IMG/VR virus record: IMGVR_UViG_3300045988_006673
Location: 1-44,934 of that record
From: a virus
Lineage: Duplodnaviria > Heunggongvirae > Uroviricota > Caudoviricetes
DNA: 44,934 nt
Strand: one strand, 5' to 3'
Of the stretch, positions 1,128-35,953 are shown one piece after another. Position numbers and translations under genes: made by a program. How positions within the stretch are numbered: position 1 is the stretch's first letter; each line of letters opens with the position of its first letter. The notes below the pieces were generated by a model that had not been told where the DNA came from, ran no database searches, and saw only the letters and a program-made list of their open reading frames with translations.

Positions 1128-1156
1128 TTGCGCACCCCAATATAATAGGGTACTAT
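1128..1156 (+). promoter_or_regulatory. Class I promoter-like element P1: TTGCGC-N17-TACTAT with conserved spacer ACCCCAATATAATAGGG
   Basis: Sigma70-like -35/-10 at 17-bp spacing, about 30 bp upstream of the 1185 start; near-identical copies at 10837, 12992 and (minus strand) 21657 and 23429. Confidence 0.5.
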
Positions 1157-1184
1157 TCACCTGTAACCTACTGAGGAAACAATT

Positions 1185-9235: not shown

Positions 9236-9237
9236 TA

Positions 9238-10836: not shown

Positions 10837-10865
10837 TTGCACACCCCAATATAATAGGGTACTAT
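10837..10865 (+). promoter_or_regulatory. Class I promoter-like element P2: TTGCAC-N17-TACTAT, spacer ACCCCAATATAATAGGG
   Basis: Identical spacer to P1; about 30 bp upstream of 10894 start with GAGGAG RBS. Confidence 0.5.
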
Positions 10866-10893
10866 TCATTACATCGAAACGAGGAGATGAAAA

Positions 10894-11415: not shown

Positions 11416-11421
11416 AACTAA

Positions 11422-12991: not shown

Positions 12992-13020
12992 TTGCAGACA
13001 CCAATATAATAGTGTACTAT
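12992..13020 (+). promoter_or_regulatory. Class I promoter-like element P3: TTGCAG-N17-TACTAT, spacer ACACCAATATAATAGTG
   Basis: Third plus-strand copy; 28 bp upstream of small ORF at 13048. Confidence 0.45.
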
Positions 13021-13047
13021 TCAGTTAACTTAAACAGGAGATGAAAA

Positions 13048-13227
13048 ATGAAAAATTACAAATTCTACGCGGTAGTAGACGATAAAGGGGTTGTTGGTAT
13101 TTCTAACGAAAAGTATAGAACTTTGAAAGCTATCTTCACAGATTTGTCTTGTGCTGAGCGAGTGCTGGAGAGGAACAAAAACATGCCGCTAAGAATAGAG
13201 GTTGTAGAGATAATTAAGCCCCTGTAA
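13048..13227 (+). CDS. Small hypothetical protein (59 aa), between head morphogenesis and portal genes
   Basis: ATG with AGGAG RBS, own promoter and terminator; not in ORF track (<60 aa). Confidence 0.4.
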   Translation: MKNYKFYAVVDDKGVVGISNEKYRTLKAIFTDLSCAERVLERNKNMPLRIEVVEIIKPL

Positions 13228-13237
13228 GGGGCCTTTC
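13217..13237. terminator. Hairpin GCCCC-TGTAA-GGGGC followed by CTTTCTC
   Basis: Stem-loop spanning the stop codon of 13048..13227; adjacent to portal gene end (13238). Confidence 0.45.
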
Positions 13238-16941: not shown

Positions 16942-16970
16942 ACTATACTAGCAGGCTATTCACGCGTCAA
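16942..16970 (-). promoter_or_regulatory. Class II promoter-like element (minus strand): TTGACG-N17-TATAGT, spacer contains TGAATAGC
   Basis: Near-consensus sigma70 hexamers at 17-bp spacing upstream of 16896 start. Confidence 0.45.
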
Positions 16971-17074: not shown

Positions 17075-17380
17075 TTAATATCCGCATTCCCCGCTCTCCT
17101 TTCGCGTACTACTGGTTAATAACTTATCCTGCAAAATCATAACAGCATCAGCCATGATTTGTACGTGCCACAAATCTTTATCAGGGTACGGCAGTTTGTT
17201 AGGGTCGGACGACGATACACAGGTTGTTATCTTGGACCGCATAATGTCTATGAGAGTCAATAATTGCTTTTCATCACCACATTGAAGCACTAAGCTGACA
17301 AGTGTTTCGTATTCAGCGTTCTTTTCATCAACCGGGCTTTGTTTAATACCACAACATCTGCAAGGTTTCATCTCACTCAT
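17075..17380 (-). CDS. Hypothetical Cys-rich protein (101 aa)
   Basis: ORF in the early leftward region, overlapping stop/start with upstream gene. Confidence 0.4.
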   Translation of the reverse strand: MSEMKPCRCCGIKQSPVDEKNAEYETLVSLVLQCGDEKQLLTLIDIMRSKITTCVSSSDPNKLPYPDKDLWHVQIMADAVMILQDKLLTSSTRKESGECGY

Positions 17381-17637
17381 TCCCTGCTCTCCCCTCGTGC
17401 GATGCGTTGCTCAGTTTTGGTGATACCCCGGCGCGTGAATAACACCGGGCTAGTCTTAACGTGCGTCATCAGACGGTTGTTATAAATTACGTGGCGCTCG
17501 CAATCAACGTCTTTGCTGTACTTCGCAATCGTCATTTCGTTGATGCCGGTTTGACGGCATGTCTCGGCCATCGTGCCGTATTCTTTAATCAGGTTCGGAA
17601 TGCTGGTAATCATCCTACGAAATTCCTCGTTGTCCAC
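17377..17637 (-). CDS. Hypothetical protein (86 aa), possible HTH
   Basis: ORF; segment ETCRQTGINEMTIAKY resembles a helix-turn-helix. Confidence 0.4.
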   Translation of the reverse strand: MDNEEFRRMITSIPNLIKEYGTMAETCRQTGINEMTIAKYSKDVDCERHVIYNNRLMTHVKTSPVLFTRRGITKTEQRIARGESRE

Positions 17638-19008: not shown

Positions 19009-19037
19009 AATATAATAGGGTCTAAGGTAATAGTCAA
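19009..19037 (-). promoter_or_regulatory. Promoter-like element (minus strand): TTGACT-N17-TATATT
   Basis: Sigma70-like hexamers at 17-bp spacing; forward strand carries AATATAATAGGGT as in class I spacers. Confidence 0.4.
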
Positions 19038-21507: not shown

Positions 21508-21656
21508 ATTCTTCACTGACTCCGTTATAGACGCCGTTGTAATCTCCGTCGCAGATGAACGGGTAGAGCATATCTTCGTACTCGTCCTGCAACTCACCCA
21601 AAGTTACTTCGCTATAATCTTTCATCTTCTGTCTCTCCTCTCGTTTGTGTAAATGA

Positions 21657-21685
21657 ATAGTAGCCTATTCTATCATAGTGTGCAA
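21657..21685 (-). promoter_or_regulatory. Class I promoter-like element P4 (minus strand): TTGCAC-N17-TACTAT
   Basis: Reverse complement TTGCACACTATGATAGAATAGGCTACTATTCA; upstream of the gene block starting near 21628. Confidence 0.45.
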
Positions 21686-22312: not shown

Positions 22313-22345
22313 AAGTCACTTAGTAAAATCCCAAACTATTGAACA

Positions 22346-23403: not shown

Positions 23404-23428
23404 TCCTCTGTCCCGTTTCGATAAGTGA

Positions 23429-23457
23429 ATAGTATCCTATTATGTTGGGGTGTGCAA
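23429..23457 (-). promoter_or_regulatory. Class I promoter-like element P5 (minus strand): TTGCAC-N17-TACTAT, spacer ACCCCAACATAATAGGA
   Basis: Reverse complement nearly identical to P1 and P2. Confidence 0.5.
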
Positions 23458-23827
23458 GAGAATAGTTACGTTGCCGTTGTGATTCTTCAGGTAGGGTTGT
23501 GCCTTTATTCTTATTACTTGGTAACTAAAGGGCAGGCCTTAAGCCTGCCCAATAATCGTTACATTTTTACGGTTGCGAATCTACGGCACATTAAGAAAAT
23601 CAGATACTTAAGAGATATGCCGCCGATGAGAATAGAGCTTGCCCAGGGCAACCGGAGATACTTAGGAAGGAAAGTTACGATAATTCTCATGTTCAGTAAG
23701 CCTGTGTTTAACCCTTTGCTTGTCGCACGGGTTAAACATTCTTACAAGGTGAACAGGAATCAAAGTAACTAAGATACAGAAGCACCTTAAACGAAGATTT
23801 TCATAATGTCAATAGGTGCGATTATGT

Positions 23828-23856
23828 TTGATTTCCCATTATTCGCAATGTATACT
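23828..23856 (+). promoter_or_regulatory. Rightward early promoter: TTGATT-N17-TATACT
   Basis: Sigma70-like hexamers at 17-bp spacing, about 30 bp upstream of the 23889 start. Confidence 0.5.
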
Positions 23857-23888
23857 AGATTTCGTTAACTGATAATGAGGGTTTTAGA

Positions 23889-24059
23889 ATGACACAGAAT
23901 GAGGTAGCCGAGCGTATCGGGGTTACTCGTCGCACACTGAATAACTGGTTAAAGAGTGGGAAGTTTCCGGATTGTTGTATTCGCATTATGGGCCGCCGGC
24001 AGCCAGGTACGTTTGACCCGGAGAAAGTGGAAGCGTGGATTAAGGAGAACGTGAAATGA
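23889..24059 (+). CDS. AlpA/Xis-like HTH DNA-binding protein (56 aa)
   Basis: MTQNEVAERIGVTRRTLNNWLKSGKFP matches the AlpA-family HTH pattern; RBS AATGAGGG; not in ORF track (<60 aa). Confidence 0.55.
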   Translation: MTQNEVAERIGVTRRTLNNWLKSGKFPDCCIRIMGRRQPGTFDPEKVEAWIKENVK

Positions 24060-24289
24060 CCGAATTCCAGTCACGCGTATTTACGGCGGTCGTTTCGTTA
24101 ACATGTAAAAAAGGGTCGTGCAGCGTTATCGACTTGCGCCGCAGTTATTTTAAGTACTATAGTTCCGCCATTATTGAAGGGTCGTTGAGGGTGCTGGTTA
24201 AATCTGGTGTCGTGAAAAACACTGGCGGGAAATATAGCGCCGTTGCTGAAGTTCGTGGAATGACCGCTACTTTAGAAGACCTGGAATAA
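24056..24289 (+). CDS. Hypothetical protein (77 aa) ending in LEDLE
   Basis: ATGA overlap with upstream gene. Confidence 0.4.
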   Translation: MTEFQSRVFTAVVSLTCKKGSCSVIDLRRSYFKYYSSAIIEGSLRVLVKSGVVKNTGGKYSAVAEVRGMTATLEDLE

Positions 24290-24346
24290 AAGAAAGCCCC
24301 GACGTTAGAGCGCCGAGGCCAAATTACTTGCTGAAGGAAATACAAC

Positions 24347-26617
24347 ATGTCCGATGTAATTTTATCCTACTCGTGGTCTCGTCGCAACGCGCGAGCGGAG
24401 AAAAAGGATATAAACGTCAGAACAACACACACGGCAACACTGGACGACCTGAAAGAGTTAATCCAGCCACTAGATGCCGTTCGTGGCGGAATTAACCCGA
24501 AGACCGCGCCCGGTTATATCACTGCCGCGTGTGACTCTACACACAGCACCGTAAAAGACCCGGAAACCGGTGACTTTAAGCAAGCGCGTAAAGGCTTCTT
24601 CTATCGCTGTGATGCGTCTGTAAGCAAATCGTCGCTGGCGTATCTGGACTTCGACAGTGCAACACCGGAAGAGTATCAGAGAGCTGTGCGCCTGGTTAAG
24701 CGCAGCCGCCAGGCTATGTGCCTTTACACCACGGCATCCCATACTGATGAGGCCCCACGCTTCCGCGTCGTCGTGCCGCTAGGTTGCCCGGTTGAAGGTG
24801 GCGACATCATCCGTGTTCGTCATGGATTGCTGGAGCATTTCTTCAAAGGTATGGGCGCGGACCGCAGCGGTTTTACTCTGTCCCAGCCTATGTACCTGCC
24901 ACCGGTTGGCTCTACCGTTATCTGGTCTCGTCGCAACGACCTGATTGACCCGAACGAGTTACTGGAAGGCATCCCCGCCGTTGACGTTAGCAGTGCATCG
25001 GATTACCAGATACCGGAAGAACTGCGCACCGCGTTTACTGATGCGTTCGAGGCACTGGCGTTCGAGTATGGCGGCATCATGACGCCGCGCGGCCTGAAAA
25101 TGCCAGCTACGCCGGAACACGCGGAGAACTACAGCGACCCTACGCCGCGCCCGGATGACTTCCTGCTGTGCTTCCCGCGTGAAGGGTACGAAGCGCCCAA
25201 CGTAGCAATGATTCACGACACCGACATTACGGCGACAGAAGGCATGTCACCGAAAGAGGTGTGGAAGTATGCGTGCGACGCGACTGGTCTTCCGTTCAGT
25301 GAAGTCGCCGAGGCTATCGGCTGGGGCGCACGTGAGTCAGTTTTGTGCAGCCTCGACGACCTGGAAGACGACGAGGACTCAGAGGAGGACGAGCTACCGG
25401 AACCGGTAAAGGCCGATTTCGTCGTTGAAGGGTACATGCCGTCGGATTGTATCTGGGATATCGTCGGGGAATCTGGCACGTACAAATCGTTCTATACGCT
25501 GGGGATGATGTACCTTAGCGCCGCCGGATACCGGTTTGCTGGGGCGGACACCCAGCGTTGTCACCATTTCTATATCGATGGTGAGGGTGGTGCAGCCACA
25601 CGTACACGTATTGATGCGCTCGCGGCTAAATACGGCGCGGAAGGTAAAGATTATGTACATGTCATTGATATGGGAGAAGTTGGAAAACTGAAAAGTCTGA
25701 TTAAGCTAATGCGCGAAACTGCTGGCGACGAGCCAATTGGCATGGTTGCGTTCGACACCCTCAACCAGACGCTGGCCCTGACGATTGATAAGTTCGACGA
25801 GAACAGCTCCTCAACAGCAATCGGCATGGGTAAAGTTATCGCCATCCTGAAAGAAGTACGCGACGCGACTAAAGCCGCGGTAGGCGTTGTCCACCATACC
25901 CCGAAGGGTGGAAAGAAAGCCCGCGGCAGTGGGGCATTGTATGCTGGTGTCGATGTGGAGCTAACAATTGAGCGTGCGACCGATCGCCAGATAAACGTAT
26001 ACCACTCGAAATTTAAGCACGGGCCTCAACAGAAGACGGTGGGCATGGTGCTGGAGTCGGTACAGTTCCGTGAAGCGCCGCCGCCGAAAGAATACCGTGC
26101 GGTTGAGTTCATCGGTAACACAGAGGAATACGGCACAATCGTAAACCTCGACCTGCCGGAACCACACAAGGCGCTTGTACTGATGCCGTGGGGCTTCGAG
26201 CCGTTCAAGACTGACGAGGAGAAAGAGCGGGAAGAAGGACTGACAAATGAAGGTAAAGCGGCCGTTAAAGAAAAGGTAGGCCAGTTTGAGAAACTGGATA
26301 CCAAAGAAGCTACGGTTATTTACGCATTAGGTAAATTGCAGGAGCAGGGTGATGACAAGCGAGGGTTCTCCATGTCCGCTATCGTCAAAGCGGCAAAAGA
26401 AGATAGTTACGGCGTACCGATTAACGCTAACAACGACCTTCGAAAGAAACTGGAAGAGATGCACGAGGCAGGGGTTATCGTCTCAGGACTGGATAACAAC
26501 AACAGGCCTATACCTAAGCAGTACCGTCTGCCGTGGGGTATAAACGACAACAAGATTCCGAAGACAATATACGAACCGAATGAAATGCTGGTGGTGACAG
26601 AGGAGGATTTGGAATAG
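24347..26617 (+). CDS. Primase-polymerase / RepA-like replicative helicase (756 aa)
   Basis: N-terminal region with LAYLDFD acidic motif (primase-like); central P-loop GESGTYKS and RecA/AAA_25-like core; GAAGGAAA RBS. Confidence 0.65.
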   Translation: MSDVILSYSWSRRNARAEKKDINVRTTHTATLDDLKELIQPLDAVRGGINPKTAPGYITAACDSTHSTVKDPETGDFKQARKGFFYRCDASVSKSSLAYLDFDSATPEEYQRAVRLVKRSRQAMCLYTTASHTDEAPRFRVVVPLGCPVEGGDIIRVRHGLLEHFFKGMGADRSGFTLSQPMYLPPVGSTVIWSRRNDLIDPNELLEGIPAVDVSSASDYQIPEELRTAFTDAFEALAFEYGGIMTPRGLKMPATPEHAENYSDPTPRPDDFLLCFPREGYEAPNVAMIHDTDITATEGMSPKEVWKYACDATGLPFSEVAEAIGWGARESVLCSLDDLEDDEDSEEDELPEPVKADFVVEGYMPSDCIWDIVGESGTYKSFYTLGMMYLSAAGYRFAGADTQRCHHFYIDGEGGAATRTRIDALAAKYGAEGKDYVHVIDMGEVGKLKSLIKLMRETAGDEPIGMVAFDTLNQTLALTIDKFDENSSSTAIGMGKVIAILKEVRDATKAAVGVVHHTPKGGKKARGSGALYAGVDVELTIERATDRQINVYHSKFKHGPQQKTVGMVLESVQFREAPPPKEYRAVEFIGNTEEYGTIVNLDLPEPHKALVLMPWGFEPFKTDEEKEREEGLTNEGKAAVKEKVGQFEKLDTKEATVIYALGKLQEQGDDKRGFSMSAIVKAAKEDSYGVPINANNDLRKKLEEMHEAGVIVSGLDNNNRPIPKQYRLPWGINDNKIPKTIYEPNEMLVVTEEDLE

Positions 26618-26634
26618 GTAAAAAGAAAGGGGCG

Positions 26635-26850
26635 TTAAGCCCCTTCACCGAACGCCAGCCACTTAGCGTCTACCTGCAGCACTTCCGCCAGTTTAAACAG
26701 TGTCGCCGGACGTACGTCCTGAGTTACCCCGAGTGCCAGTTGGTTAATCGCGCCCTGGGAAACACCGGCCAGGACAGCCAGACGGCGCTGGGAGATGCCG
26801 AGTTCTTTGCGGCGTTGTTCTACGCGAATGCCTAGTTCAGATGGTTGCAT
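26635..26850 (-). CDS. XRE-family (Cro/CI-type) HTH transcriptional regulator (71 aa)
   Basis: ISQRRLAVLAGVSQGAINQLALG is a canonical HTH_XRE segment; divergent from the operator-bearing promoters at 26871..26943. Confidence 0.7.
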   Translation of the reverse strand: MQPSELGIRVEQRRKELGISQRRLAVLAGVSQGAINQLALGVTQDVRPATLFKLAEVLQVDAKWLAFGEGA

Positions 26851-26870
26851 GTCAGTTACTCCTTAGTCAG

Positions 26871-26943
26871 TTGATATGTGAATAGTACCATATTAATTAT
26901 TTTAGAAAAGCCCATTGACAAGTGAATAGTTAGCTATTATAGT
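26871..26943 (+). promoter_or_regulatory. Tandem class II promoter-like elements (TTGATA-N17-TAATTA at 26871..26899; TTGACA-N17-TATAGT at 26915..26943), each carrying a GTGAATAGT operator-like site
   Basis: Two consecutive -35/-10 pairs with conserved spacer TGAATAGTTAGCTAT between the XRE gene and the 26975 gene. Confidence 0.5.
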
Positions 26944-26974
26944 TAGCCCATACCAAACGAGAGGAGAGAAACAA

Positions 26975-27475
26975 ATGTTAGAGAAATTCTTAGTATTACT
27001 TGAACGTTTCGTAGTTGCCCACGAACTGATTGCCGCGAACAGTGCGAAACGACCGGTGCCGCCGGCTGAGCGTGTAGGTGAAATGCTTGTAGACGTGTCG
27101 GTTACGGGAGAGGTACTTGAAGTCGACCCAGGCACTGGCGTAGGGAAAGAAATACCGGTGGAAGGCGAAGACATCGTCGACACTAAACCGGCAGAAGACG
27201 AGAAGCCGAAACGCAAGCCGCGTAAAGCTAAAGTTGAGGAGCCGACACCAGAACCGGAAGAAGAAGTAGATTACCAGTCTCTTCGTGACCAGATTCAGGC
27301 TATCGACGATGCAATAAGTGCCGGGCCTAGTAATAAGGCTTGCGCCGATGCCGATGATCTGCTGGAGGAGTTCACCGGTAAACATTTCCAATTAGCTAAG
27401 ATTAAAGACGAAGACCTGCCCGAGTACCTTGAACGCCTGACGACAATCAAGAACAAGTATTTCGAAGAAGAATAA
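26975..27475 (+). CDS. Hypothetical acidic protein (166 aa)
   Basis: ATG with GAGGAGAG RBS; Glu/Asp/Pro-rich centre with basic KPKRKPRKAK patch. Confidence 0.45.
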   Translation: MLEKFLVLLERFVVAHELIAANSAKRPVPPAERVGEMLVDVSVTGEVLEVDPGTGVGKEIPVEGEDIVDTKPAEDEKPKRKPRKAKVEEPTPEPEEEVDYQSLRDQIQAIDDAISAGPSNKACADADDLLEEFTGKHFQLAKIKDEDLPEYLERLTTIKNKYFEEE

Positions 27476-27518
27476 CTATCCCGCGGCCTTCGGGCCGCTT
27501 TAACTGAGGGTCAGAAAT

Positions 27519-27791
27519 ATGATTTACCAACTCTACCGCGCCGTAGACAGGCGGGATAACACAGAGGCGCTATGGCTGTTACGTGCGCCGTCCGGTGCGC
27601 ACCTGATGGAAGAGATGGCGTACTTAGGCAAAGTACCGCGACCTAAAGATATAGGCCGCCACGTGTCACAGATTAAGCGCACGACTTTCGCCAAACCTGA
27701 CTTTTATGTATTCGAGTCGATGTATGGGTGGGCTATGCACTGCGAGCATAAGACACGACATTTAATCGACCAGTGGGAGAACCGGGTATGA
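27519..27791 (+). CDS. Hypothetical protein (90 aa)
   Basis: ORF; stop overlaps downstream nuclease start (ATGA). Confidence 0.4.
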   Translation: MIYQLYRAVDRRDNTEALWLLRAPSGAHLMEEMAYLGKVPRPKDIGRHVSQIKRTTFAKPDFYVFESMYGWAMHCEHKTRHLIDQWENRV

Positions 27792-29098
27792 TTTTAAAGG
27801 AACGCGGCGGCAATAATGATGTGCACGCCTTACTGTCGCCGTCAGGTGCTAAAAAGTGGCTAAGCTGCGCGGCATCGTTGGCCTGTGAAAAAGATATTCC
27901 TAACACTTCGGGTAAATCCGCCGTTACAGGGACTGCGTGCCACACTATAGCAGAGGTCCATCTAAACCAGTACATCAAAGGCACTGCGTTGCCGTTGGAG
28001 CGCGAAGTCGGTGCTTACGTGCTGGATGAGGGTAAAGGCCAGATTAAGGCGCTAATCAGCCCGATGAAGGGCGCGGTACTGATTACGGCGGATATGATTG
28101 AGCAGGTGCGCAAGTACACCGACTACTGCAAAGCGATTATAGATGTAGCGACTTACGCCAAGCTGGAAATGCGCGTCAATCTTACTGAGGTATTGCATCC
28201 GGGGTACAAAGTACCTGCTGGGAGTGAAGAAGGTAAGGAGGATGGTTTAGAGACATTCGGAACAGCCGACTTAGTGGCGGTTATAGAAGGCTTTACGGGT
28301 GAGAGTAACTCAGCGATGCTAATTATCGGCGACCTTAAAACAGGACGGCATCGGGTCGAAGCGAAAGAAAACAAGCAGCTTATGCTTTATGCGCTCGGTG
28401 TATATCGCCGACTCAAGAGACGTTATAACATCACAGTTGTTCGTCTGGTAATCTTCCAGCCGTACGCTGGCGGTGCGTTGGAGTGGGACATTTCGGTTGA
28501 AGGTCTGGAACTGTTCGCTAAGTTCGCACAGAAACGAGCACTGTTAGCTCTTGATGCCTATTCCCGTGGCAAGAAGAATCTGAAAGCGTCGGATTTCAGG
28601 CCGTCGGTCGATGGGTGCCAGTGGTGTCGGTTCTCTGAACAATGCGCCGCGCGTACAAAGACGGTTAATTCTGTACTGGCGGAAGAACTGGAAGACGACT
28701 TTGCGCTGGAGCTTACGCCGGAGCAACTCGTAGCTGAGTATGAGAAGTTGCCGCTGTTGCGCCAGCACATCGACAAGGTTGAGAGAGCTATGGCTGCCGC
28801 GTTGCATTCTGGCAAGAAAGTGCCTGGGTACAAGCTGGTCGAAGGTCGCCCGGGTAATCGTGCGTGGAAAGATGCGAAGGAGGTAATAGACGCCGCAGAA
28901 TTTTATGAAATAGACCGGAAAATGCTGTTTAAGGCGTCTCTTGTGTCTCCTAAAGAAGCAGAGGCCGCGTTCAAAAATACCGATGCGTGGCCTATTCTCG
29001 AAAAACTAATTACCCGTAAGCCCGGCGCACCATGTGTCGCAACGACAGATGATAAACGGCCTGAGTGGAATCAGGTAACAGAGGAGGATTTGGAATGA
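27788..29098 (+). CDS. PD-(D/E)XK exonuclease (DUF2800 / Cas4-RecB-like) with C-terminal Cys cluster
   Basis: C-terminal CQWCRFSEQC cluster typical of Fe-S containing RecB-family nucleases; adjacent to SSB-like gene; start chosen at ATG 27788. Confidence 0.65.
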   Translation: MILKERGGNNDVHALLSPSGAKKWLSCAASLACEKDIPNTSGKSAVTGTACHTIAEVHLNQYIKGTALPLEREVGAYVLDEGKGQIKALISPMKGAVLITADMIEQVRKYTDYCKAIIDVATYAKLEMRVNLTEVLHPGYKVPAGSEEGKEDGLETFGTADLVAVIEGFTGESNSAMLIIGDLKTGRHRVEAKENKQLMLYALGVYRRLKRRYNITVVRLVIFQPYAGGALEWDISVEGLELFAKFAQKRALLALDAYSRGKKNLKASDFRPSVDGCQWCRFSEQCAARTKTVNSVLAEELEDDFALELTPEQLVAEYEKLPLLRQHIDKVERAMAAALHSGKKVPGYKLVEGRPGNRAWKDAKEVIDAAEFYEIDRKMLFKASLVSPKEAEAAFKNTDAWPILEKLITRKPGAPCVATTDDKRPEWNQVTEEDLE

Positions 29099-29253
29099 TT
29101 AGTAAAATTGTGTATTGGGCTTTATTATCACCGTTGATAGTTATATCTGCTTTTACTTCATTTTTTGCTTGGGTAGATCGTAAGTTTAGGGGTAGCCCAC
29201 CCATAGAACGCTATGTTCTTTGGTGTGAAAAAGTTTCTAAAATTAAGCGTTGA
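29095..29253 (+). CDS. Small membrane protein (52 aa)
   Basis: ATG 8 nt after GAGGAGG, overlapping nuclease stop (ATGA); one hydrophobic helix. Confidence 0.4.
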   Translation: MISKIVYWALLSPLIVISAFTSFFAWVDRKFRGSPPIERYVLWCEKVSKIKR

Positions 29254-29278
29254 CACCTGAATAGTTAGCTATTATAGT
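29250..29278 (+). promoter_or_regulatory. Class II promoter-like element: TTGACA-N17-TATAGT, spacer CCTGAATAGTTAGCTAT
   Basis: Near-identical to 26915..26943; upstream of SSB-like gene. Confidence 0.5.
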
Positions 29279-29332
29279 TCTAATCACTGGCCGGGCAGCT
29301 TCCCGGAGTAAACTTAAAAGCGAGAAATTAAG

Positions 29333-29959
29333 ATGGGACTGAAATTAAATCTGCGTAAAGTAAACACTGCTTGGGTTAACGTATTTGAACGCGAAAAAGA
29401 CCGTGAAAACGATGATGGCTCAATCACTAAAGGTCGGTACAGCGCAACTATCATCCTGCCGTCTGACCATGCTCAAATCGACGCGCTTTACGACACTGTT
29501 TACGCTGTAGTCGAAGAAGCATTAGGGGCCGCCGCTGCTGAGAAGTGGATGAAGTCCAACTACGGCGAAGGTAAGCACATGGATAAATGTGCGATTAAAG
29601 ACATTGCCGAGCGAGACAATCCGTTTGAAGACTTCCCGGAAGGCTTCTACTTCAAAGCGAAGGCACAGAAACAGCCACTGATTGTAACATCTAAAAAAGG
29701 TGAGACTCAGGTAGAGCAGGATTTCAACGTAGACGGTGGACAGATTGAAGGCGAACAGGTTTACAGCGGCTGCGTTGCTAACGTAAGCGTAGAAATCTGG
29801 TTCAGCCAGAAATACAAAGTCCTCGGCGTTAACCTGCTGGCTATTAAATACGTTGGCGAAGGTAAAGCGTTTGGTGGTTCTAAAGTCGCCGCAAGCGTCA
29901 ATGACCTGGAAGACGACGAAGAAGATGAAGCACCGCGCCGCGAACGTCGCCGTCGCTAA
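29333..29959 (+). CDS. ssDNA-binding protein-like (DUF2815 family), acidic C-terminal tail
   Basis: Gene order DUF2800-DUF2815-DNA polymerase typical of this replication module; C-terminal DLEDDEEDE tail. Confidence 0.5.
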   Translation: MGLKLNLRKVNTAWVNVFEREKDRENDDGSITKGRYSATIILPSDHAQIDALYDTVYAVVEEALGAAAAEKWMKSNYGEGKHMDKCAIKDIAERDNPFEDFPEGFYFKAKAQKQPLIVTSKKGETQVEQDFNVDGGQIEGEQVYSGCVANVSVEIWFSQKYKVLGVNLLAIKYVGEGKAFGGSKVAASVNDLEDDEEDEAPRRERRRR

Positions 29960-29980
29960 TATCTGAATCAATTTAACTAA

Positions 29981-30001
29981 GGCCCTTCATTGGGCCTTTT
30001 T
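29981..30001 (+). terminator. Rho-independent terminator GGCCC-TTCATT-GGGCC-TTTTT
   Basis: GC stem followed by five T, just after the SSB-like gene. Confidence 0.65.
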
Positions 30002-30170
30002 ACTAAGGGTCGAAAATAATGTTTTTCTGTAGGCACGTTTATCGCTATATGAAACCGCTTCCGTGGTACGCAGATGAGTACCGGGCCGGGTACAGGCATG
30101 TGTGGATTTGCCGTGATTGTATGAAAATAAGATTAAGCGAAACGAAGGCACTGGATTTAAGGAAAAAGAA

Positions 30171-32351
30171 ATGAGCTACTTATACCTGGACTTTGAAACA
30201 TTCTCTGATGCCGATTTAAAGAAAGTCGGCTCCTACGCTTACGCCGAACATCCATCCACCGAAGTGCTCATCTGCGCATACGCTTTTGACGACGAACCTG
30301 TTCAGGTGTGGGATTGCACTGACGGCAGCGACATGCCAGGCGATTTGCACCGCGCACTTCGCCGCCTGGTGAAGCCTAACAGCCGCATCAAGATGGTATG
30401 GCACAACGGTTCAATGTTCGACAGGCTCATCATGAAACACTGCTGGGGCTTTGATATTCCGGTAAGCAACACCATTGATACGATGATTTGGGCTTTTCGT
30501 CACGCGCTGCCGGGTTCTCTTGATGCGTTGTGTGGGGTGCTGGGTGTGTCGGCAGACAACGCGAAAGATAAACGAGGCAAGGCGCTGATTCAGCGTTTTT
30601 CTAAACCGACGCCGAAGAACTACAAAATTCGCCGTTACACTGCTGAAACCCACCCTGACGAATGGGTGCTGTTCATCAAGTACGCCGTGAGTGACATTAC
30701 TGCGATGCGTGAAGTCTTCAATAAGCTGCCGCGTTGGGGTAACTCTGAGTTTGAAGACCGTGTACTGGAACTTGACCAGTTAATCAACGACCGCGGGTTT
30801 AAGGTCGACGTGGCACTGGCGGAAGCCGCGATTGAAGCCGTGGAGAAACACAAAGCACAGTTACAGGAAGAAGCCCAACGTAAATACGGCGGCTCGCTTA
30901 CTGGAAAGGACTTTCTGCCGATTCTACGTGAACTTGCCCCCGCGCACCGCATCCACAATGCGCAGAAGTCGACGCTGAATGACCTGTTGGCGGACGATGA
31001 TTTACCGGACGACGCCCGCACGATTATCGAAATGCGCCTCGGGGCTGCATCCACCGCGTCAACGAAATATAACCCGCTGCTCTTGGGCCGCTCTGCGGAC
31101 GACCGACGTCGCGGTTGCATCCAGTACGGTGGGGCTAAGCGTACGTTGCGGTTTGCTGGTAAAGGATTCCAGCCGCAGAACCTGGCGCGCGGGTACTATC
31201 ACGACGATGAACTGGATAAAGGCGTTTCTGCGTTACTTAAGGGCCGCGCCCATCGCCGTTTCGATGTAGCCAAGCTAACGGCCTCGACGGTTCGTAGCTG
31301 CATCATACCGGAAGCAGGGCATAAGTTTGTCGTTGCCGATTACTCGAACGTCGAAGGCCGCGGTTTGGCATGGCTGGCGGGAGAAGAAACCGCGCTCGAT
31401 ACGTTCCGCGCCGGGCTGGACATTTACTGTGTAACCGCGGGTAAGATGTTCGGCATGGAACCGGATTACATTAAGAAAGAACGTAAAGACCTACGCCAGA
31501 TTGGTAAAGCCTGTGAACTGGGCCTAGGCTACGCCGGGGGTGTCGGCGCGTTCGTTCAGTTTGCTAAGAACCTCGGACTTGACCTTGTCGATATGGCTAA
31601 AACAATGGATGGGACATTCCCTGACCATATATGGGCAGCTACCGCACGCGGGTATGAGTGGGCGCGTATTCAGGAGGCAAAGCGACCACCGCGCCCCGGT
31701 GAAAAGGACGACAGACCGTCGTATATTCTTGATAAGAAAGTGTGGCGTACCTGTGACGCTATCAAGCGCATGTGGCGCGAGTCTCACCCAGAAACCGTAG
31801 CTTTCTGGCGGGGTATTGAAGACGCAGCTATGGCCGCCATCCGCAACCCAGGTAAAGAGTTCACCGCAGGGCCGCGCGGCGTTAAGTTTTCGCGTAACGT
31901 AGAGACAGACAACAACGGCAACAAAGTCGCGGGCTGGTGGTTGCGCATGACGTTGCCGTCGGGTCGCGTTATGTCATACCCGGGCGTCGGGTTAAGCGTG
32001 TCGAAAGAAACAGACGAAGATGGAAAAGTGTCTACTAACGTGCGCATCAAGTACCAGGGGGAGAATCAGCTAACCCGCAAGTGGGGCTTCCAGTACACCT
32101 ACTCCGGTAAACTGGTGGAAAACTGCACCCAGGCATTGTGCCGTGATTTGCTGGCTAACGCGCTGCTGAACGTAGAAGCTAACGGCTACCCGATTGTACT
32201 TCATGTTCACGATGAGATTATATGCGAGACACCAGATTTACCGGAATACAATGTGGCTGAGCTGGAAAAATTAATGTGTGAATTACCGGAATGGGCCGAG
32301 GGGTTCCCTCTTGTGGCGGAAGGTGCGGAGATGAAGCGTTATGCTAAGTAA
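30171..32351 (+). CDS. Family A DNA polymerase with 3'-5' exonuclease domain
   Basis: Exo I motif YLDFETFS near N-terminus; 726 aa from ATG 30171 (track ORF extends to 30117). Confidence 0.8.
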   Translation: MSYLYLDFETFSDADLKKVGSYAYAEHPSTEVLICAYAFDDEPVQVWDCTDGSDMPGDLHRALRRLVKPNSRIKMVWHNGSMFDRLIMKHCWGFDIPVSNTIDTMIWAFRHALPGSLDALCGVLGVSADNAKDKRGKALIQRFSKPTPKNYKIRRYTAETHPDEWVLFIKYAVSDITAMREVFNKLPRWGNSEFEDRVLELDQLINDRGFKVDVALAEAAIEAVEKHKAQLQEEAQRKYGGSLTGKDFLPILRELAPAHRIHNAQKSTLNDLLADDDLPDDARTIIEMRLGAASTASTKYNPLLLGRSADDRRRGCIQYGGAKRTLRFAGKGFQPQNLARGYYHDDELDKGVSALLKGRAHRRFDVAKLTASTVRSCIIPEAGHKFVVADYSNVEGRGLAWLAGEETALDTFRAGLDIYCVTAGKMFGMEPDYIKKERKDLRQIGKACELGLGYAGGVGAFVQFAKNLGLDLVDMAKTMDGTFPDHIWAATARGYEWARIQEAKRPPRPGEKDDRPSYILDKKVWRTCDAIKRMWRESHPETVAFWRGIEDAAMAAIRNPGKEFTAGPRGVKFSRNVETDNNGNKVAGWWLRMTLPSGRVMSYPGVGLSVSKETDEDGKVSTNVRIKYQGENQLTRKWGFQYTYSGKLVENCTQALCRDLLANALLNVEANGYPIVLHVHDEIICETPDLPEYNVAELEKLMCELPEWAEGFPLVAEGAEMKRYAK

Positions 32352-32472
32352 ACTGATTATCGCGGTACTGGCTGGATTTGCCGCCGGTGTCTACTGTCAC
32401 GAGGGTCAATACGGCATGATGGTTGCCATATTGGGTATGTTCATCACAATTTATCTGTGGGTGCTGGAATGA
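32341..32472 (+). CDS. Micro-ORF, 43-aa membrane peptide
   Basis: ATG overlapping polymerase stop; hydrophobic; stop overlaps next ATG (ATGA). Confidence 0.3.
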   Translation: MLSKLIIAVLAGFAAGVYCHEGQYGMMVAILGMFITIYLWVLE

Positions 32473-32558
32473 AAATCTACTGGTTTTATGAAGAAGACTG
32501 TCGAATCTGTCCGCGCTGCGGTATTGCACATACGAAACGTGAGGGGTGCGTGTTATGA
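32469..32558 (+). CDS. Micro-ORF, 29-aa peptide with CxxC...C motif
   Basis: ATGA overlap on both ends with neighbouring micro-ORFs. Confidence 0.3.
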   Translation: MKIYWFYEEDCRICPRCGIAHTKREGCVL

Positions 32559-32707
32559 CAATGTTTGTATTTTGGACAACAGTAACCATGCTAGCACTGT
32601 TATTCGGTGCGGGAATAGCTGCGATGTTCTGTTACGGCCTGTTCTTTAAGTTTGTTGGCGTTGCCGTTCTCGGAGGGGCGTTTATAACTTGGGTTCTGCG
32701 CTCATGA
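32555..32707 (+). CDS. Micro-ORF, 50-aa membrane peptide
   Basis: ATGA overlap with upstream micro-ORF and with VRR-NUC start; two hydrophobic segments. Confidence 0.3.
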   Translation: MTMFVFWTTVTMLALLFGAGIAAMFCYGLFFKFVGVAVLGGAFITWVLRS

Positions 32708-32988
32708 CCCCGGAAGGCAAGATTCAGAAATACGCAAAAGAGCGATTCGAGGCCATTGGTGGCCTCGTTCGCAAATTGTCATACGAAAATAGAGCAGGCG
32801 CTCCTGACCTGCTGGTAATTCTCCCCGGCGGCATCGTCTGGTTCGTCGAGGTTAAGAAAGACGAAAACACGAAGCCGGACCCGCACCAGTTACGGGAGCA
32901 TGAGCGGATGCGTAAACGTGGTGCAAATGTTTTTGTCGTTGGTTCGATAAAACAGATTGACGACCTAATAGCGAACTATTATAGTTAG
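32704..32988 (+). CDS. VRR-NUC domain nuclease
   Basis: PDLLVILPGGIVWFVEVK carries the PD-(D/E)xK signature in the arrangement typical of VRR-NUC proteins. Confidence 0.6.
   Translation: MTPEGKIQKYAKERFEAIGGLVRKLSYENRAGAPDLLVILPGGIVWFVEVKKDENTKPDPHQLREHERMRKRGANVFVVGSIKQIDDLIANYYS
32957..32985 (+). promoter_or_regulatory. Class II promoter-like element: TTGACG-N17-TATAGT
   Basis: Hexamers at 17-bp spacing inside the 3' end of the VRR-NUC gene; shares CTATTATAGT with other class II sites. Confidence 0.4.
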
Positions 32989-33018
32989 TCCTACACCAAC
33001 AATATAAGGAATTGAGAA

Positions 33019-33210
33019 ATGAAACACGAATATGACCGCAAACCAGCACGTGACATCGTACCTGGAGACATGATTTTCAACGTTAAGACACGCCGACCTG
33101 TTGCCGTCGATACGGTGTTCGTCGAGTCGAACGGTAAACTGGTTATAGAAGATGTAACAGGTAACGTTACGGCGTTCGGGCGTAAAGAGTTAGTTCTGGT
33201 GTTGAAATGA
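33019..33210 (+). CDS. Hypothetical protein (63 aa)
   Basis: ATG with AAGGAATTGAG RBS region; stop overlaps the downstream start. Confidence 0.4.
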   Translation: MKHEYDRKPARDIVPGDMIFNVKTRRPVAVDTVFVESNGKLVIEDVTGNVTAFGRKELVLVLK

Positions 33211-33890
33211 TTGTCTGGTCATTGTTTGACGGTTCGGGCCTTATGGCCCAGCCGTGGGCGGAAGCGGGCCATACTTGCTATTGTTTCAACTACGATGGCG
33301 CTGACCACGGCGACTACGCACGATTGGGCGCAAAAGTTGAACACGAGAACATACGCTATATAAACGCGTGGATTGATACTAAGTTTGACTTCGAGGTTGC
33401 GCCGGATATTATTTTCGCATTTCCTCCTTGCACGGATTTAGCCGTTAGCGGGGCTGCGCATTTTGAAACAAAGCGCAAGAAGAACCCAACGTTTCAGGTA
33501 GAGGCCGTGATTACATGCAAACTGGCGGCCCGTCTGGCTAAAAAGTATAACGTACCTTATATGATTGAGAACCCGGTTAGTGTTCTTTCATCTTTATGGC
33601 GTAAGCCTGATTATGTGTTCAATCCTTACGAATACGGTGGCTATCTACCAGAAAACGACACGCACCCAATGTTCCCTGAATACATAAAACCACGTGACGC
33701 GTACCCCAAAAAGACATGTATTTGGGTGGGTAACGGTTTTTTTATGCCGGTTAAATCATGTGTTGCCGTTGTTGATGGGTACTCAGACCAGCACAACAAA
33801 CTTGGCGGTAAATCAGTGCGGACAAAAACAATCCGCAGCCTTACTCCTCGAGGTTTCGCAAAAGCAGTTTACGAGGCTAATCATGTCTAA
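33207..33890 (+). CDS. DNA (cytosine-5)-methyltransferase-like protein, unusually short (227 aa)
   Basis: Motif I-like SLFDGSG, motif IV PPCTDLAVSGA (catalytic Pro-Cys), motif VI-like MIENPV. Confidence 0.5.
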   Translation: MIVWSLFDGSGLMAQPWAEAGHTCYCFNYDGADHGDYARLGAKVEHENIRYINAWIDTKFDFEVAPDIIFAFPPCTDLAVSGAAHFETKRKKNPTFQVEAVITCKLAARLAKKYNVPYMIENPVSVLSSLWRKPDYVFNPYEYGGYLPENDTHPMFPEYIKPRDAYPKKTCIWVGNGFFMPVKSCVAVVDGYSDQHNKLGGKSVRTKTIRSLTPRGFAKAVYEANHV

Positions 33891-35307
33891 GTTTCAAAGG
33901 CGCGAGTACCAAAAGCTCATGACTTCGTTCATGTTGCGGCACCATCGATGCAACATATGGGCAAGCATGGGTGCCGGGAAGACTGGCAGCGTACTGTGGG
34001 TTCTAAACCGCCTGTTCCGCAACGGGCAGCTCACGGAAGAGGACCGCGTGTTAATCCTCGCCCCGTTACGTGTTGCGTCCGGTACGTGGCCTGCTGAACA
34101 AGAGAAATGGAACTTCCCTTGTCTGCGTGTCGTAGATGCAACCGGTTCAGAGAAGCGCCGCATCGCGGCGCTGGAGTCAGACGCTAACGTGGTTTGCACC
34201 AACTACGAAGTTATCGAATGGCTGATTGACTACTACGGCAAAGACGACTGGCCTTTTACGGTTATCGTTGCTGACGAGAGTACGAAGCTAAAATCATTCC
34301 GCAGCCGTTCGGGGGGAAGCAAGCGGGCGAAGGCGCTTAGTAAAGTGGCGTTCGGTAAAGTTAAGCGTTTCATTAATCTTACAGGCACACCATCACCAAA
34401 CGGGCTCAAAGACTTGTGGGGCCAGAACTGGTTTATCGATGGCGGCGAGCGCCTCGGTTCTTCATACACGGCATTTACCGACCGCTGGTTTAACTCGGTG
34501 CAAAAAGGTAAGTCGGCTATGGCGCGGGAGTATCACGCACGACCGGGTGCGGATACTGAAATTCATCAGAAGATGAAGGACATTAGTCTCACGATTGACG
34601 CCGCCGAGTGGTTCGGATGTGAAGCGCCGATTATTGTACCGGTTGAGATAGACCTGCCGAAGAAGGCGCGTCAGGCGTACATCGATATGGAGGAGAAGTT
34701 ATTTGCGGAACTGGAGAGTGGGGAAGTTGAAGCGGCTAACGCGGCGGCGAAGACGTCGAAGTGTTTGCAGATTGCATCCGGTGCCGTATATGTGTCTGGC
34801 CCCGACGGCGAGGCAACCAAAGACTGGGAGAAAGTGCACGACACGAAACTAGACGCGCTGGAGTCGATTGTCGAGGAGTTACAGGGTGCGCCGTTGCTGG
34901 TCGCCTATCAGTTCAAGCACGAACTGGAGCGCATCCTTAAGCGATTCCCTCAGGCACAGGCGTTTGCCAAAGGTGCTAAGGGGAATAAGCAGATGGAAGC
35001 GTGGAACCGCGGGGAGATACCTATGCTCCTGATACACCCAGCCTCCGCAGGTCACGGGCTGTCGCTACAACACGGCGGACACCACATGGCCTTTATGAGT
35101 CAGGGGTGGAACCTGGAACATTATTTGCAGGTTATCGAGCGTATAGGTCCGGTAAGGCAGATGCAATCTGGATACAGACGGTCTGTATTCATTTATCAAA
35201 TAATAGCCCGAGATACTCTTGATGAAGTTGTCGCCGCGCGTACAGACGAGAAAAGGTCTGTACAGGATGAACTACTTAATTATATGAAGAGAAGGAGTAA
35301 GAAATGA
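33883..35307 (+). CDS. SNF2-family (SF2) helicase
   Basis: Motif I GAGKT, motif II DEST, motif III LTGTPSPNGLKDLW typical of SNF2-type ATPases; start chosen at ATG 33883. Confidence 0.7.
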   Translation: MSKFQRREYQKLMTSFMLRHHRCNIWASMGAGKTGSVLWVLNRLFRNGQLTEEDRVLILAPLRVASGTWPAEQEKWNFPCLRVVDATGSEKRRIAALESDANVVCTNYEVIEWLIDYYGKDDWPFTVIVADESTKLKSFRSRSGGSKRAKALSKVAFGKVKRFINLTGTPSPNGLKDLWGQNWFIDGGERLGSSYTAFTDRWFNSVQKGKSAMAREYHARPGADTEIHQKMKDISLTIDAAEWFGCEAPIIVPVEIDLPKKARQAYIDMEEKLFAELESGEVEAANAAAKTSKCLQIASGAVYVSGPDGEATKDWEKVHDTKLDALESIVEELQGAPLLVAYQFKHELERILKRFPQAQAFAKGAKGNKQMEAWNRGEIPMLLIHPASAGHGLSLQHGGHHMAFMSQGWNLEHYLQVIERIGPVRQMQSGYRRSVFIYQIIARDTLDEVVAARTDEKRSVQDELLNYMKRRSKK

Positions 35308-35819
35308 TGGATTGCGAGGAGTTACTACTTAGGGTGCATCTGTTGTCACGAGGTTTTGACGCGGACCGTTTACGTGTAGTCTTAGGCCCTGGAGTAGCTA
35401 CGTTTTACCTGTGGGGGTTTGATGGTAGGCTTCGCGGATACCAGCACTACAAACCACACGCGGAAAAGAACTGTAAAAACCCTAAAGACGCGAGGTACTT
35501 TACCAGAACAACAAGGCCGTGTTTGTGGGGGCTTGAGTATTTGCCGTATAGCGGGGTGGTATTTGTTACCGAAAGCATATTCAAAGCCGTAGCATTGATG
35601 AATTGCGGGTTCAATGCCGTAAGCGCACTGGGGTCAAATATACCAGCCGATTTACGGCGGCAAATGTCACTTTTGCCGTATGATTGGGTGTGCGCTGGGG
35701 ACAATGATAAAGATGGGTTAAAGTTCAGCAAAACATTCACCAGAGGATTTGTATCTAACGACCTTGATGAACTTTGTGAAGAAGAAATAACGTATCTTGC
35801 GAGGAAATTTACCAGATGA
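35304..35819 (+). CDS. TOPRIM-domain protein (DnaG-type primase catalytic core-like), stand-alone
   Basis: VFVTESIFKA (conserved Glu) and AGDNDKDG (DxD) in TOPRIM-typical order; ATGA overlap with helicase. Confidence 0.5.
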   Translation: MMDCEELLLRVHLLSRGFDADRLRVVLGPGVATFYLWGFDGRLRGYQHYKPHAEKNCKNPKDARYFTRTTRPCLWGLEYLPYSGVVFVTESIFKAVALMNCGFNAVSALGSNIPADLRRQMSLLPYDWVCAGDNDKDGLKFSKTFTRGFVSNDLDELCEEEITYLARKFTR

Positions 35820-35953
35820 ACATCATAGCCCCAATTCCGGTATTGCAAAAACGTATCAAGGAACTAGAAGAAGAGGTTCTACGACTACGGCAACAGAGAG
35901 ATGCCGCTAATGCGCAACTGGCGTTTGTACTTGAGAAGTTATCAGAAGAGTAG
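35816..35953 (+). CDS. Small coiled-coil protein (45 aa)
   Basis: ATGA-coupled to TOPRIM gene; heptad-like ELEEEVLRLRQQ; not in ORF track. Confidence 0.3.
   Translation: MNIIAPIPVLQKRIKELEEEVLRLRQQRDAANAQLAFVLEKLSEE

Follow-up and report, generated by a model that had tools for sequence, protein, structure and literature searches.

The AATAG-N4-CTATT dyad on promoter cores of a Kagunavirus-like phage as a putative operator of its 434-Cro-like XRE protein

Introduction

What is the function of a repressor gene in a strictly lytic phage? The question is raised by the virus genome IMGVR_UViG_3300045988_006673 (44,934 nucleotides; the whole stretch was analysed and is called the window below), in which a gene for an XRE-family helix-turn-helix (HTH) protein of 71 amino acids (aa) lies on the minus strand at 26635-26850 and is separated by a gap of 124 bp from a rightward operon starting at 26975. 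All phages of this strictly lytic group retain such a 'repressor' gene, which regularly raises safety questions in genome reports; the genera Kagunavirus and Jerseyvirus are among the most often isolated candidates for therapy and biocontrol against Escherichia coli K1, uropathogenic E. coli (UPEC) and Salmonella. A sequence-only reading of the window had placed two tandem promoters with operator-like sequences into the gap and had proposed a single operator code, used genome-wide and read by the XRE protein or by an AlpA-like one in a phage with no integrase. Here we describe a 14-bp dyad, AATAG-N4-CTATT, that lies on the promoter cores of the window, and with slightly more than even confidence we interpret it as the operator of a dimeric HTH repressor of the phage, most probably of the XRE protein, which on sequence grounds is 434-Cro-like.

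The window belongs to Kagunavirus (subfamily Guernseyvirinae) by megablast, with ~88-91% identity to ST20, K1H, K1ind1 and EF2-1, and judging by its sequence it is a Kagunavirus-like virulent siphovirus of E. coli. The annotations of K1H, Jersey, fBC-Eco01 and vB_SenTO17 (SenTO17 below) include neither an integrase nor CI nor an RNA polymerase, and no other lysogeny module either; in the window itself individual scans covered some of the open reading frames (ORFs). The earlier description of a phage without integrase agrees with the family annotations (K1H, Jersey, fBC-Eco01) and with two genome papers, in which lysogeny genes are reported absent from related phages (PMC9825357, PMC7203180). 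The comparisons below cover 47 IMG/VR loci together with K1H, Jersey, fBC-Eco01 and SenTO17, and the allele analysis was done over 50 loci.

Results and Discussion

Enrichment of the dyad

The dyad AATAG-N4-CTATT (14 bases) is present in eight perfect copies in the window, starting at 1144, 10853, 13008, 21656, 23428, 26925, 29260 and 32967, against 0.038 expected from base composition. Allowing one mismatch raises the count to 12, while 100 shuffled sequences gave 1.05 on average and never as many as 12. The four one-mismatch copies start at 16947, 19029 and 26881, all on promoter-like sites, and at 10762, where the match overlaps a perfect 16-bp palindrome. Unbiased enumeration of inverted repeats with 5+5 arms gives this dyad as the most enriched one in the window, in K1H (7 copies) and in Jersey (4 copies), and perfect dyads are found in 50 of the 50 Kagunavirus and Jerseyvirus loci compared. 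In Kagunavirus the conserved sequence is extended to TGAATAG-N4-CTATT(C/A)A. The enrichment is real and far beyond chance.

The strings that had originally drawn attention to the locus were found in place, TGAATAGTACCATAT at 26879-26893 and TGAATAGTTAGCTAT at 26923-26937, and the composite sequence GTGAATAGT-N3-CTATTATAGT with up to three mismatches has seven matches in the window (0.01 expected). The 29-mer TTGACAAGTGAATAGTTAGCTATTATAGT (26915-26943) recurs with two mismatches at 29250-29278, with 0 recurrences expected by chance, and the related copies at 32957-32985 (plus strand) and 16942-16970 (minus strand) were also confirmed. The idea of a single genome-wide code is upheld insofar as an operator-like code occurs at most promoters and is kept in all Kagunavirus and Jerseyvirus loci examined, but it has to be narrowed. 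The hexamer GAATAG, named as a shared half-site, is not enriched (27 observed, 22 expected), and the 16-bp palindrome at 10769-10784 exists but does not belong to the code: its half-sites are everted (CTATTC/GAATAG, spacer 0), and a sequence of 45 kb should contain ~0.7 perfect palindromes of 16 bp by chance.

Position of the dyad on promoter cores

Promoters are called here as consensus matches only. A promoter-like core underlies 11 of the 12 dyad sites. The cores fall into two classes, both of the sigma-70 type, with -35 and -10 hexamers 16-18 bp apart upstream of a gene and with 10-11 of 12 consensus positions in class II. In class II, TTGACA-N4-AATAG-N4-CTAT[T-ATAGT], the dyad fills the 17-bp spacer and touches the -10 hexamer, the last T of the dyad being the first base of TATAGT. 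In class I, TTGCAC-N10-AATAG-NN[TA-CTAT]T-CA, the spacer is also 17 bp long, the -10 hexamer TACTAT lies within the right half of the dyad and a Shine-Dalgarno sequence follows ~20 nt downstream.

The class II promoter TTGACA-17-TATAGT at 26915..26943 (plus strand, 11/12 consensus), confirmed from the earlier reading, precedes the 26975 operon and is kept in 38 Kagunavirus loci. Two further candidates of this class on the plus strand are found at 29250..29278 (perfect dyad at 29260-29273), upstream of a DUF2815 gene similar to those of single-stranded DNA-binding proteins (SSB-like) and of the DNA polymerase gene, and at 32957..32985 (TTGACG-17-TATAGT, perfect dyad at 32967-32980), upstream of the methyltransferase/helicase operon. 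A class II-like promoter on the minus strand at 16942..16970 (TTGACG-17-TATAGT) carries a one-mismatch dyad (16947-16960, with the half-site CTAGT) upstream of terminase and structural genes. Class I candidates are located at 10837..10866 (plus strand, TTGCAC-17-TACTAT, perfect dyad at 10853-10866), predicted to drive a 173-aa gene (10894-11415), and at 12992..13021 (plus strand, perfect dyad at 13008-13021), before a 59-aa ORF (13048-13227). Two more are leftward: the one at 21656..21685 contains the most symmetric dyad, GAATAG-N4-CTATTC (21655-21670), and heads an operon ending in holin and endolysin genes, and the one at 23428..23457 (perfect dyad at 23428-23441) heads a group of small early-type genes. 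At 1128..1167 two promoters on opposite strands share one perfect dyad (1144-1157), namely a rightward class I promoter TTGCGC-17-TACTAT (1128-1156) and a weaker leftward class II-like one, GTTACA-17-TATATT (1167..1139). The promoter at 19009-19037, before nin-like genes, has only a degenerate or half site. A contrast case is the rightward candidate TTGATT-17-TATACT at 23828..23856, which precedes the operon of an HTH_17 gene (23889-24059) and the primase gene and is free of the dyad; the 86-nt block around it is almost invariant in Kagunavirus and Jerseyvirus.

In other Kagunavirus phages an extra perfect dyad is found beside tandem GGTGTAACAGGT repeats and a terminator hairpin TACGCTGCT...AGCAGCGTA. 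The counterpart of this extra site in the window (22320-22345) is degenerate, with AATCC-CAAA-CTATT at 22327.

The register of the dyad relative to the promoter is not constant. In class II promoters 4 nt separate it from the -35 hexamer and in class I promoters 10 nt, whereas one Jersey promoter has 7 nt, and at one orthologous Kagunavirus promoter the dyad slides by 1 nt relative to the -35 while the half-sites stay invariant. The four central base pairs are free in class II and fixed as NNTA in class I, where the -10 hexamer TACTAT needs the TA. The left half of the class II dyad, which lies in the part of the spacer unread by sigma-70, is invariant in 38 Kagunavirus loci amid varying neighbours. 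The different registers, the free centre and the invariance of the left half outside the sigma-70 contacts suggest that the dyad is a module separate from the promoter core, and invariant half-sites with a variable centre, placed in different registers in two classes, agree with an operator rather than with an RNA polymerase element. Relative to the predicted start a class II dyad spans about -25 to -12 and a class I dyad about -19 to -6, so that a protein bound there would show the geometry of a repressor and not of an activator.

It is nevertheless conceivable, although we regard it as rather unlikely, that the dyad is an intrinsic part of a strong promoter family read by host RNA polymerase alone. 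The likeness of the copies would then come from common descent, duplication or gene conversion of cassettes, and their palindromic look from overlapping AT-rich -10-like hexamers (TATTAT, TATAGT, TACTAT, TATAAT). All the sites do lie on promoter cores, with the right half overlapping or abutting the -10 hexamer in both classes; the junction xxATT/ATAGT is kept in the SenTO17 lineage, where the left half differs; and the ~32 nt that class I copies have in common exceed the needs of an operator. Besides, the same consensus was recovered by PHIRE, a finder of repeated promoters (PMC9825357). Such an origin accounts poorly, however, for the class II left half and for the changing registers described above; dyad symmetry with a free 4-bp centre is foreign to sigma-70 promoters, and a coordinated change of the outer base from G to T at unlinked promoters between the genera (see below) points to a reader acting in trans.

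The dyad consensus itself is already published: PHIRE analysis of the Kagunavirus phage fBC-Eco01 gave tgAATAGTa-ccTATTat-T at seven 'phage promoters', which were assigned to a phage-encoded RNA polymerase (PMC9825357). This motif occurs at positions orthologous to those in the window, including one just upstream of the XRE gene on the XRE strand. The assignment is contradicted by gene content and in our view untenable, with next to no probability left to it: no such polymerase gene is annotated in K1H, Jersey, fBC-Eco01 itself or SenTO17 nor is there one among the large ORFs of the window, all of which are structural or replication genes, and the sites coincide with near-consensus sigma-70 promoters (11 of 12). 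Several of the same sites are labelled as sigma-70-like promoters in the GenBank record of Jersey. If our interpretation is true, the published assignment of the motif would be corrected. For vB_EcoS-Golestan seven PHIRE promoters were likewise predicted (PMC7203180), a correspondence that concerns the count alone and not the sequence. The dyad symmetry, the two registers and the link to XRE are not mentioned in the fBC-Eco01 paper, and in the literature searched nothing was found on any of these or on experiments with the motif.

A function at the RNA level was also considered and rejected: the predicted transcripts would start downstream of the dyad, the arms of the dyad measure only 5 bp and there is no Rfam match in the window.

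The region between the XRE gene and the 26975 operon

In the 124-bp gap two promoters in tandem, both rightward (26871-26943), had been proposed. The left one is not supported in this form: on the plus strand it reaches only 9 of 12 consensus positions (TTGATA-18-AATTAT), which is as frequent in shuffled sequence. On the minus strand the same element reads AATATGGTACTATTCACATATCAACTGACTAAGGAG-N8-ATG and corresponds to the class I layout, with TACTATTCAC followed after ~18 nt by the Shine-Dalgarno sequence AAGGAG of the XRE ORF. The gap must hold the promoter of the XRE gene, since the gene needs one and there is no other place for it. The candidate is the class-I-like extended -10 element TGgTACTAT at 26882..26890 (minus strand); a second leftward candidate, TTCACT-16-TAAAAT at 26926..26899, was returned by the promoter scan. 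At the position of the first candidate Kagunavirus phages have the TG of the extended -10 without a -35 hexamer, whereas Jerseyvirus phages have TTGCAC-17-TACTAT without the TG, an exchange that looks compensatory from the alignment. The tandem arrangement is probably wrong; most probably the promoters are divergent and back to back, one directed leftward to XRE and the other rightward to the 26975 operon. An additional weak rightward promoter may exist at the left element.

Each of these promoters is covered by a dyad. O1 (26925..26938) is the perfect sequence AATAG-TTAG-CTATT, located in the spacer of the 26915 promoter and abutting its -10 hexamer; the -35 hexamer of the second leftward candidate would fall inside it. 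O2 (26881..26894), AATAG-TACC-ATATT, has one mismatch and lies over XRE's own candidate promoter. Among the relatives the half-sites of O1 are invariant, while its four central base pairs and its distance to the -35 hexamer vary. O2 is nearly invariant across Kagunavirus loci, including locus L076, which keeps TGcTACTATTCAC although the rest of its intergenic region has diverged. A perfect operator-like site on the divergent promoter and a one-mismatch site on the XRE promoter make up the layout of an autoregulated gene, and both sites are kept in Kagunavirus and, in weaker form, in Jerseyvirus.

The centre-to-centre distance between O1 and O2 is 44 bp in 20 Kagunavirus sequences (the window included), 45 bp in 16 loci and 55 bp in 12 Jerseyvirus loci; in locus L002 the pair lies at 35812-35880. 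The spacing thus differs between the two genera by about one helical turn (10-11 bp) and the helical phase is roughly kept, which could reflect cooperative binding or could be a coincidence.

An intrinsic terminator of the XRE gene was predicted at 26626..26646 (minus strand); the hairpin (26617-26646) lies between the stop codons of the primase and XRE genes. Its T-run is present only in the leftward direction, and therefore rightward primase transcripts should read through antisense to XRE. This could interfere with XRE transcription early in infection.

The XRE protein

The XRE ORF proposed earlier (26635-26850, minus strand, 71 aa) was confirmed. Its product matches Pfam HTH_3 with 48.1 bits (cut-off 23, E 1.2e-12) as well as PHROG families of transcriptional repressors, and its closest solved relative by sequence is 434 Cro (1zug, E 4.9e-7), which is also 71 aa long. 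The AlphaFold model (mean predicted local distance difference test, pLDDT, 79.8) consists of five helices, at residues 5-17, 21-28, 32-39, 48-57 and 62-66. The top Foldseek matches of this model are the N-terminal domain of the 434 repressor (1pra) and 434 Cro (2cro, 3cro), with TM 0.73-0.80 and 36-41% identity, and further fold matches include P22 c2, SinR and restriction-modification controller (C) proteins. The putative recognition helix opens with a glutamine, Q32, aligned with Q28 of 434. Both in sequence and in its modelled fold, then, the protein resembles 434 Cro.

Within each genus the HTH of XRE does not vary (GVSQGAINQLAL in Kagunavirus, GVSQSLITHLAT in Jerseyvirus). The XRE proteins of the window and of Jersey are 52% identical, the neighbouring genes 59-62%. 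A search of 1.84 billion representative proteins returned no unrelated element with the helix SQGAINQ, the hits being mostly multi-HTH repeat proteins, and a search of 5.8 billion proteins for the same helix returned only Kagunavirus-type proteins with an identical HTH. A metagenome scan added Kagunavirus-type and SenTO17-type loci, and the unrelated elements that it found were without the motif.

Candidate readers of the dyad

The outer base of the dyad follows the recognition helix of XRE. In Kagunavirus, where the helix is SQGAINQ, G predominates next to the half-site free of the -10 hexamer (TG-AATAG, AG-AATAG), with T occurring too; in Jerseyvirus, where it is SQSLITH, only T is found (TT/GT/AT-AATAG). 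The change from G to T is seen at several unlinked promoters of both classes.

The competing possibility is an operator read by a protein other than XRE: the AlpA/excisionase-like HTH_17 protein (56 aa, 23889-24059, plus strand), a NinH-like protein (17377-17637), an unrecognised small phage protein or a host factor. We consider it unlikely. Apart from HTH_17 and the NinH match, which is below the threshold, no other recognisable sequence-specific regulator was found among ~30 small ORFs. A host factor cannot explain the genus-specific flank, the regulators of E. coli and Salmonella being nearly identical, and comparison with the operators of LexA, ArgR, TrpR and CRP and with MarA-type boxes gave no match.

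The HTH_17 protein is a more serious candidate. Its homologues are found only in Kagunavirus and Jerseyvirus, the genera with the perfect dyad, and it is made from the one strong-looking promoter free of the dyad and is the annotated early gene in the relative K1B4 (see below). The protein of the window is 88% identical to that of Jersey, and the 10-bp core of the dyad is likewise common to both genera; on these identities (against 52% for XRE) it had seemed the better reader, a view reversed by the allele analysis over 50 loci. At least four HTH_17 alleles occur within Kagunavirus, with the putative helices TRRTLNNWL, TRQTINNWL/I and SPMTLNRWL, and none of them changes the operator. Conversely, the HTH_17 helix of Jersey is the same as that of the window, yet the Jersey operators are flanked by T rather than G. 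Small proteins of the HTH_17/Xis type typically bind direct repeats and not 14-bp dyads. Moreover, a site over the -10 hexamer suits repression, and if a repressor were the first product, expressed from an unregulated promoter, the whole programme would be shut down. Of the two readers named earlier, XRE or the AlpA-like protein, the comparative data thus favour XRE, modestly.

Other Kagunavirus phages carry HTH_17 alleles quite different from that of the window, and the segment 23805-24059, which comprises the candidate promoter together with the HTH_17 gene, has the look of a mosaic block that was exchanged.

A further lineage of Guernseyvirinae, SenTO17, has an XRE protein with 39% identity and lacks both an HTH_17 homologue and AATAG-N4-CTATT. 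Its O1 position is occupied by a diverged element, AATAC-N4-CTAAT, and five short metagenome fragments encoding an XRE near-identical to that of SenTO17 carry the same or a near-identical element there (AATAT in one of them). A de novo search for repeated 12-mers in SenTO17 gave only noise from coding regions.

Units with dyad-bearing promoters and the proposed mechanism

Dyad-bearing promoters head the replication operons at 26975 (166-aa and 90-aa proteins and a PD-(D/E)XK exonuclease), 29333 and 33019, a rightward cassette at 1185-3746 (SbcD-like DNA repair exonuclease, polynucleotide kinase and ATPase), two more rightward cassettes (10894-11415, with an annotation as clamp-like or RusA-like, and 13048-13227), the leftward group of small early-type genes below 23400 and the operon from 21625 that ends with holin and endolysin. 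Degenerate or half sites precede the terminase and structural genes (16970) and the nin-like genes (19037).

In the mechanism that we propose, the XRE dimer would sit on operator DNA such as TGAATAGTTAGCTATTCA, covering the -10 hexamer and the spacer of ~10 sigma-70-type promoters, and would thereby block host RNA polymerase. At infection the repressor would be absent and the operator-bearing promoters would fire, expressing genes of replication and DNA metabolism, small early genes and the operon ending in lysis genes. XRE would be expressed leftward from a weak promoter of its own; with rising amounts it would fill the perfect operators and turn those units down, and at higher concentration the one-mismatch O2 would provide negative autoregulation. 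Promoters with degenerate or half sites (16942-16970, 19009-19037) and the operator-free one at 23828-23856 would escape repression.

The only time-course RNA-seq study of a Kagunavirus concerns K1B4, a close relative (PMC12645636). Its 'early' class comprises four genes, of which the only annotated one is 'Helix-turn-helix domain' (008), and its 'middle' class includes 'Specific DNA binding' (004) and 'AAA domain' (005) (PMC12645636). We mapped the window proteins onto OQ696342.1 and matched the gene order, from which 004 would be XRE, 005 the primase and 008 HTH_17. The classes are compatible with an early operator-free promoter and a repressor that accumulates later and acts with a delay.

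Three of the cassettes, 1185-3774, 10894-11439 and 13048-13234 with their terminators, run rightward within the leftward structural module, each from a class I promoter to a bidirectional terminator (3755-3774, 11420-11439 and 13216-13234), and the gene content after the promoter varies among relatives. In organisation these cassettes are, as far as can be read from their layout, moron-like. One may ask whether the dyad cassettes serve primarily as sites of recombination or as boundaries, by which gene modules (morons) pass from phage to phage, their location on promoters being secondary. That class I elements head three DNA-metabolism units of this kind, followed by different genes in different relatives, would agree with such a role. 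It is very improbable all the same: homologous exchange would need a longer and less variable sequence than a 14-bp dyad with a free centre, orthologous sites are conserved across two genera, and a role at module boundaries would in any case be compatible with operator function.

Several observations weigh against the XRE operator and the timing proposed for it. The covariation of outer base and recognition helix rests on two lineages and amounts in effect to a single evolutionary event; T is also a possible outer base in Kagunavirus, and the two genera have the same 10-bp core although 4 of the 7 recognition-helix positions differ. The contig L052 has the same synteny and a Jersey-type helix, but the palindrome at its O1 position is a different one, CCCTACG-T-CGTAGGG, and in other places the dyad occurs only in versions with 2-3 mismatches. 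The contig decouples the Jersey-type XRE helix from the dyad, which would suit a reader other than XRE. The covariation of operator and regulator that had been called for is seen in the outer base; the core is unchanged, and L052 does not fit. Conservation of the right half beside the -10 hexamer, which extends to the SenTO17 lineage, may be partly promoter-intrinsic. As to timing, the K1B4 classes are coarse (5-120 min), and the most symmetric operator heads the operon ending in lysis genes, which is unexpected under simple early shut-off. The 15-bp palindrome of L052 lies in the spacer of the divergent promoter (3205-3225) and is present in none of 102 other loci.

Two of the earlier claims, the tandem promoters and the membership of the 16-bp palindrome, were not confirmed, and on the sequence evidence the Cro-like role remains plausible. 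If XRE is a global repressor, this would explain why the phages of this strictly lytic group all retain a 'repressor' gene, and a compact portable pair of repressor and operator with a graded set of promoters would be gained; general concepts of phage regulation would stay unchanged. A broader view, which we put forward tentatively and hold to be doubtful at present, is that this subfamily of virulent siphoviruses runs most of its transcription through one autoregulated Cro-like repressor with ~10 dispersed operators, whose quality (perfect, one-mismatch, half-site or absent) and register encode timing. The genus-specific outer base would then be an 'immunity type' silencing superinfecting relatives, and the system would be a descendant of a temperate switch, without CI and integrase, reused as a timer or copy-number governor.

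Gene map and other features of the window

The gene map was built by comparison with K1H. The replication module (~23889-35953, plus strand) consists of the AlpA-like HTH_17 gene, a 77-aa ORF, the primase-helicase gene, XRE on the opposite strand, the 166-aa and 90-aa ORFs and then the genes of the PD-(D/E)XK exonuclease, the DUF2815 SSB-like protein, DNA polymerase A, a VRR-NUC nuclease, the methyltransferase and the helicase. From ~23400 downwards a leftward series (minus strand) contains the small early-type, lysis, nin-like, terminase, head and tail genes.

A 551-aa ORF on the plus strand (8144-9799) overlaps in antisense orientation with two minus-strand genes, those for the scaffold and the major capsid protein (8186-9235 and 9238-9993). 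The capsid gene shares 94% identity with its K1B4 counterpart, and the plus-strand ORF is with near certainty a shadow ORF. A non-coding gap of ~450 bp (23441-23888) separates the leftward class I promoter from the HTH_17 gene; it has two hairpins (23530-23550 and 23639-23651) and no Rfam match, and could hold a replication origin or an unannotated small RNA.

Hexamers GGAATA(A/G) cluster in the stretches 9985-10035 and 10769-10825, where the minus strand has three at 10002-10033 and another three lie at 10785-10817. Just downstream of the former there is a TTGACA in front of the scaffold and major-capsid genes, with no -10 hexamer that would be obvious. A second family of inverted repeats, GAATA-N3-TATTC, is found at 9994 and 10777, with K1H equivalents at 4566 and 5349, and SenTO17 has GAATAA-N-TTATTC three times near the spanin gene. 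These elements may represent a separate regulatory code for a late, activator-dependent promoter.

Comparison with known systems

The 14-bp operators of phage 434 have the form ACAA-N6-TTGT and those of P22 c2 the form TTAAG-N4-CTTAA, the non-contacted centre being typical of both. The system described here shares with them an HTH_3 protein of ~70 aa and five helices with a conserved glutamine opening the recognition helix, a 14-bp dyad with conserved outer half-sites (their centres here 9 bp apart) and a sequence-free centre, and a location over the -10 hexamer and spacer of divergent promoters beside the regulator gene. Unlike them it has the half-site AATAG, two sites 44-45 bp apart instead of three adjacent OR sites, and at least eight further operators, predicted from sequence, across a virulent genome, and it lacks a CI partner, an S24 peptidase or oligomerisation domain and an integrase. 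A lambdoid bistable CI/Cro switch is therefore not a fit: the only XRE is 71 aa long, no second repressor was found in the scanned ORFs or in the annotation of the relatives, and a CI with an S24/oligomerisation domain, an integrase and a triple operator are all missing.

C proteins of restriction-modification systems (C.AhdI, C.BclI), which are among the fold matches of the XRE model, are also small XRE-fold dimers that bind dyads on their own promoter, and they act as a delay timer after entry into a naive cell. They differ in serving one or two promoters and in activating before they repress, and the geometry of activation is not seen here.

A repressor code spread over the genome is known from P1 C1, with more than 10 scattered operators, and from mycobacteriophage L5 gp71 with its 'stoperators'. 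In both cases, as proposed here, one code is used at many promoters or transcription units genome-wide; their sites, however, are asymmetric, read by monomers and maintain lysogeny, whereas the sites of the window are dyads on promoter cores in a phage without a lysogeny module. As far as the sequence allows a judgement, the XRE/operator system would be a fairly ordinary kind of phage gene control, to which the 434 and P22 repressor/operator pairs are mechanistically closest, and P1 C1 and L5 gp71 closest with respect to the genome-wide code.

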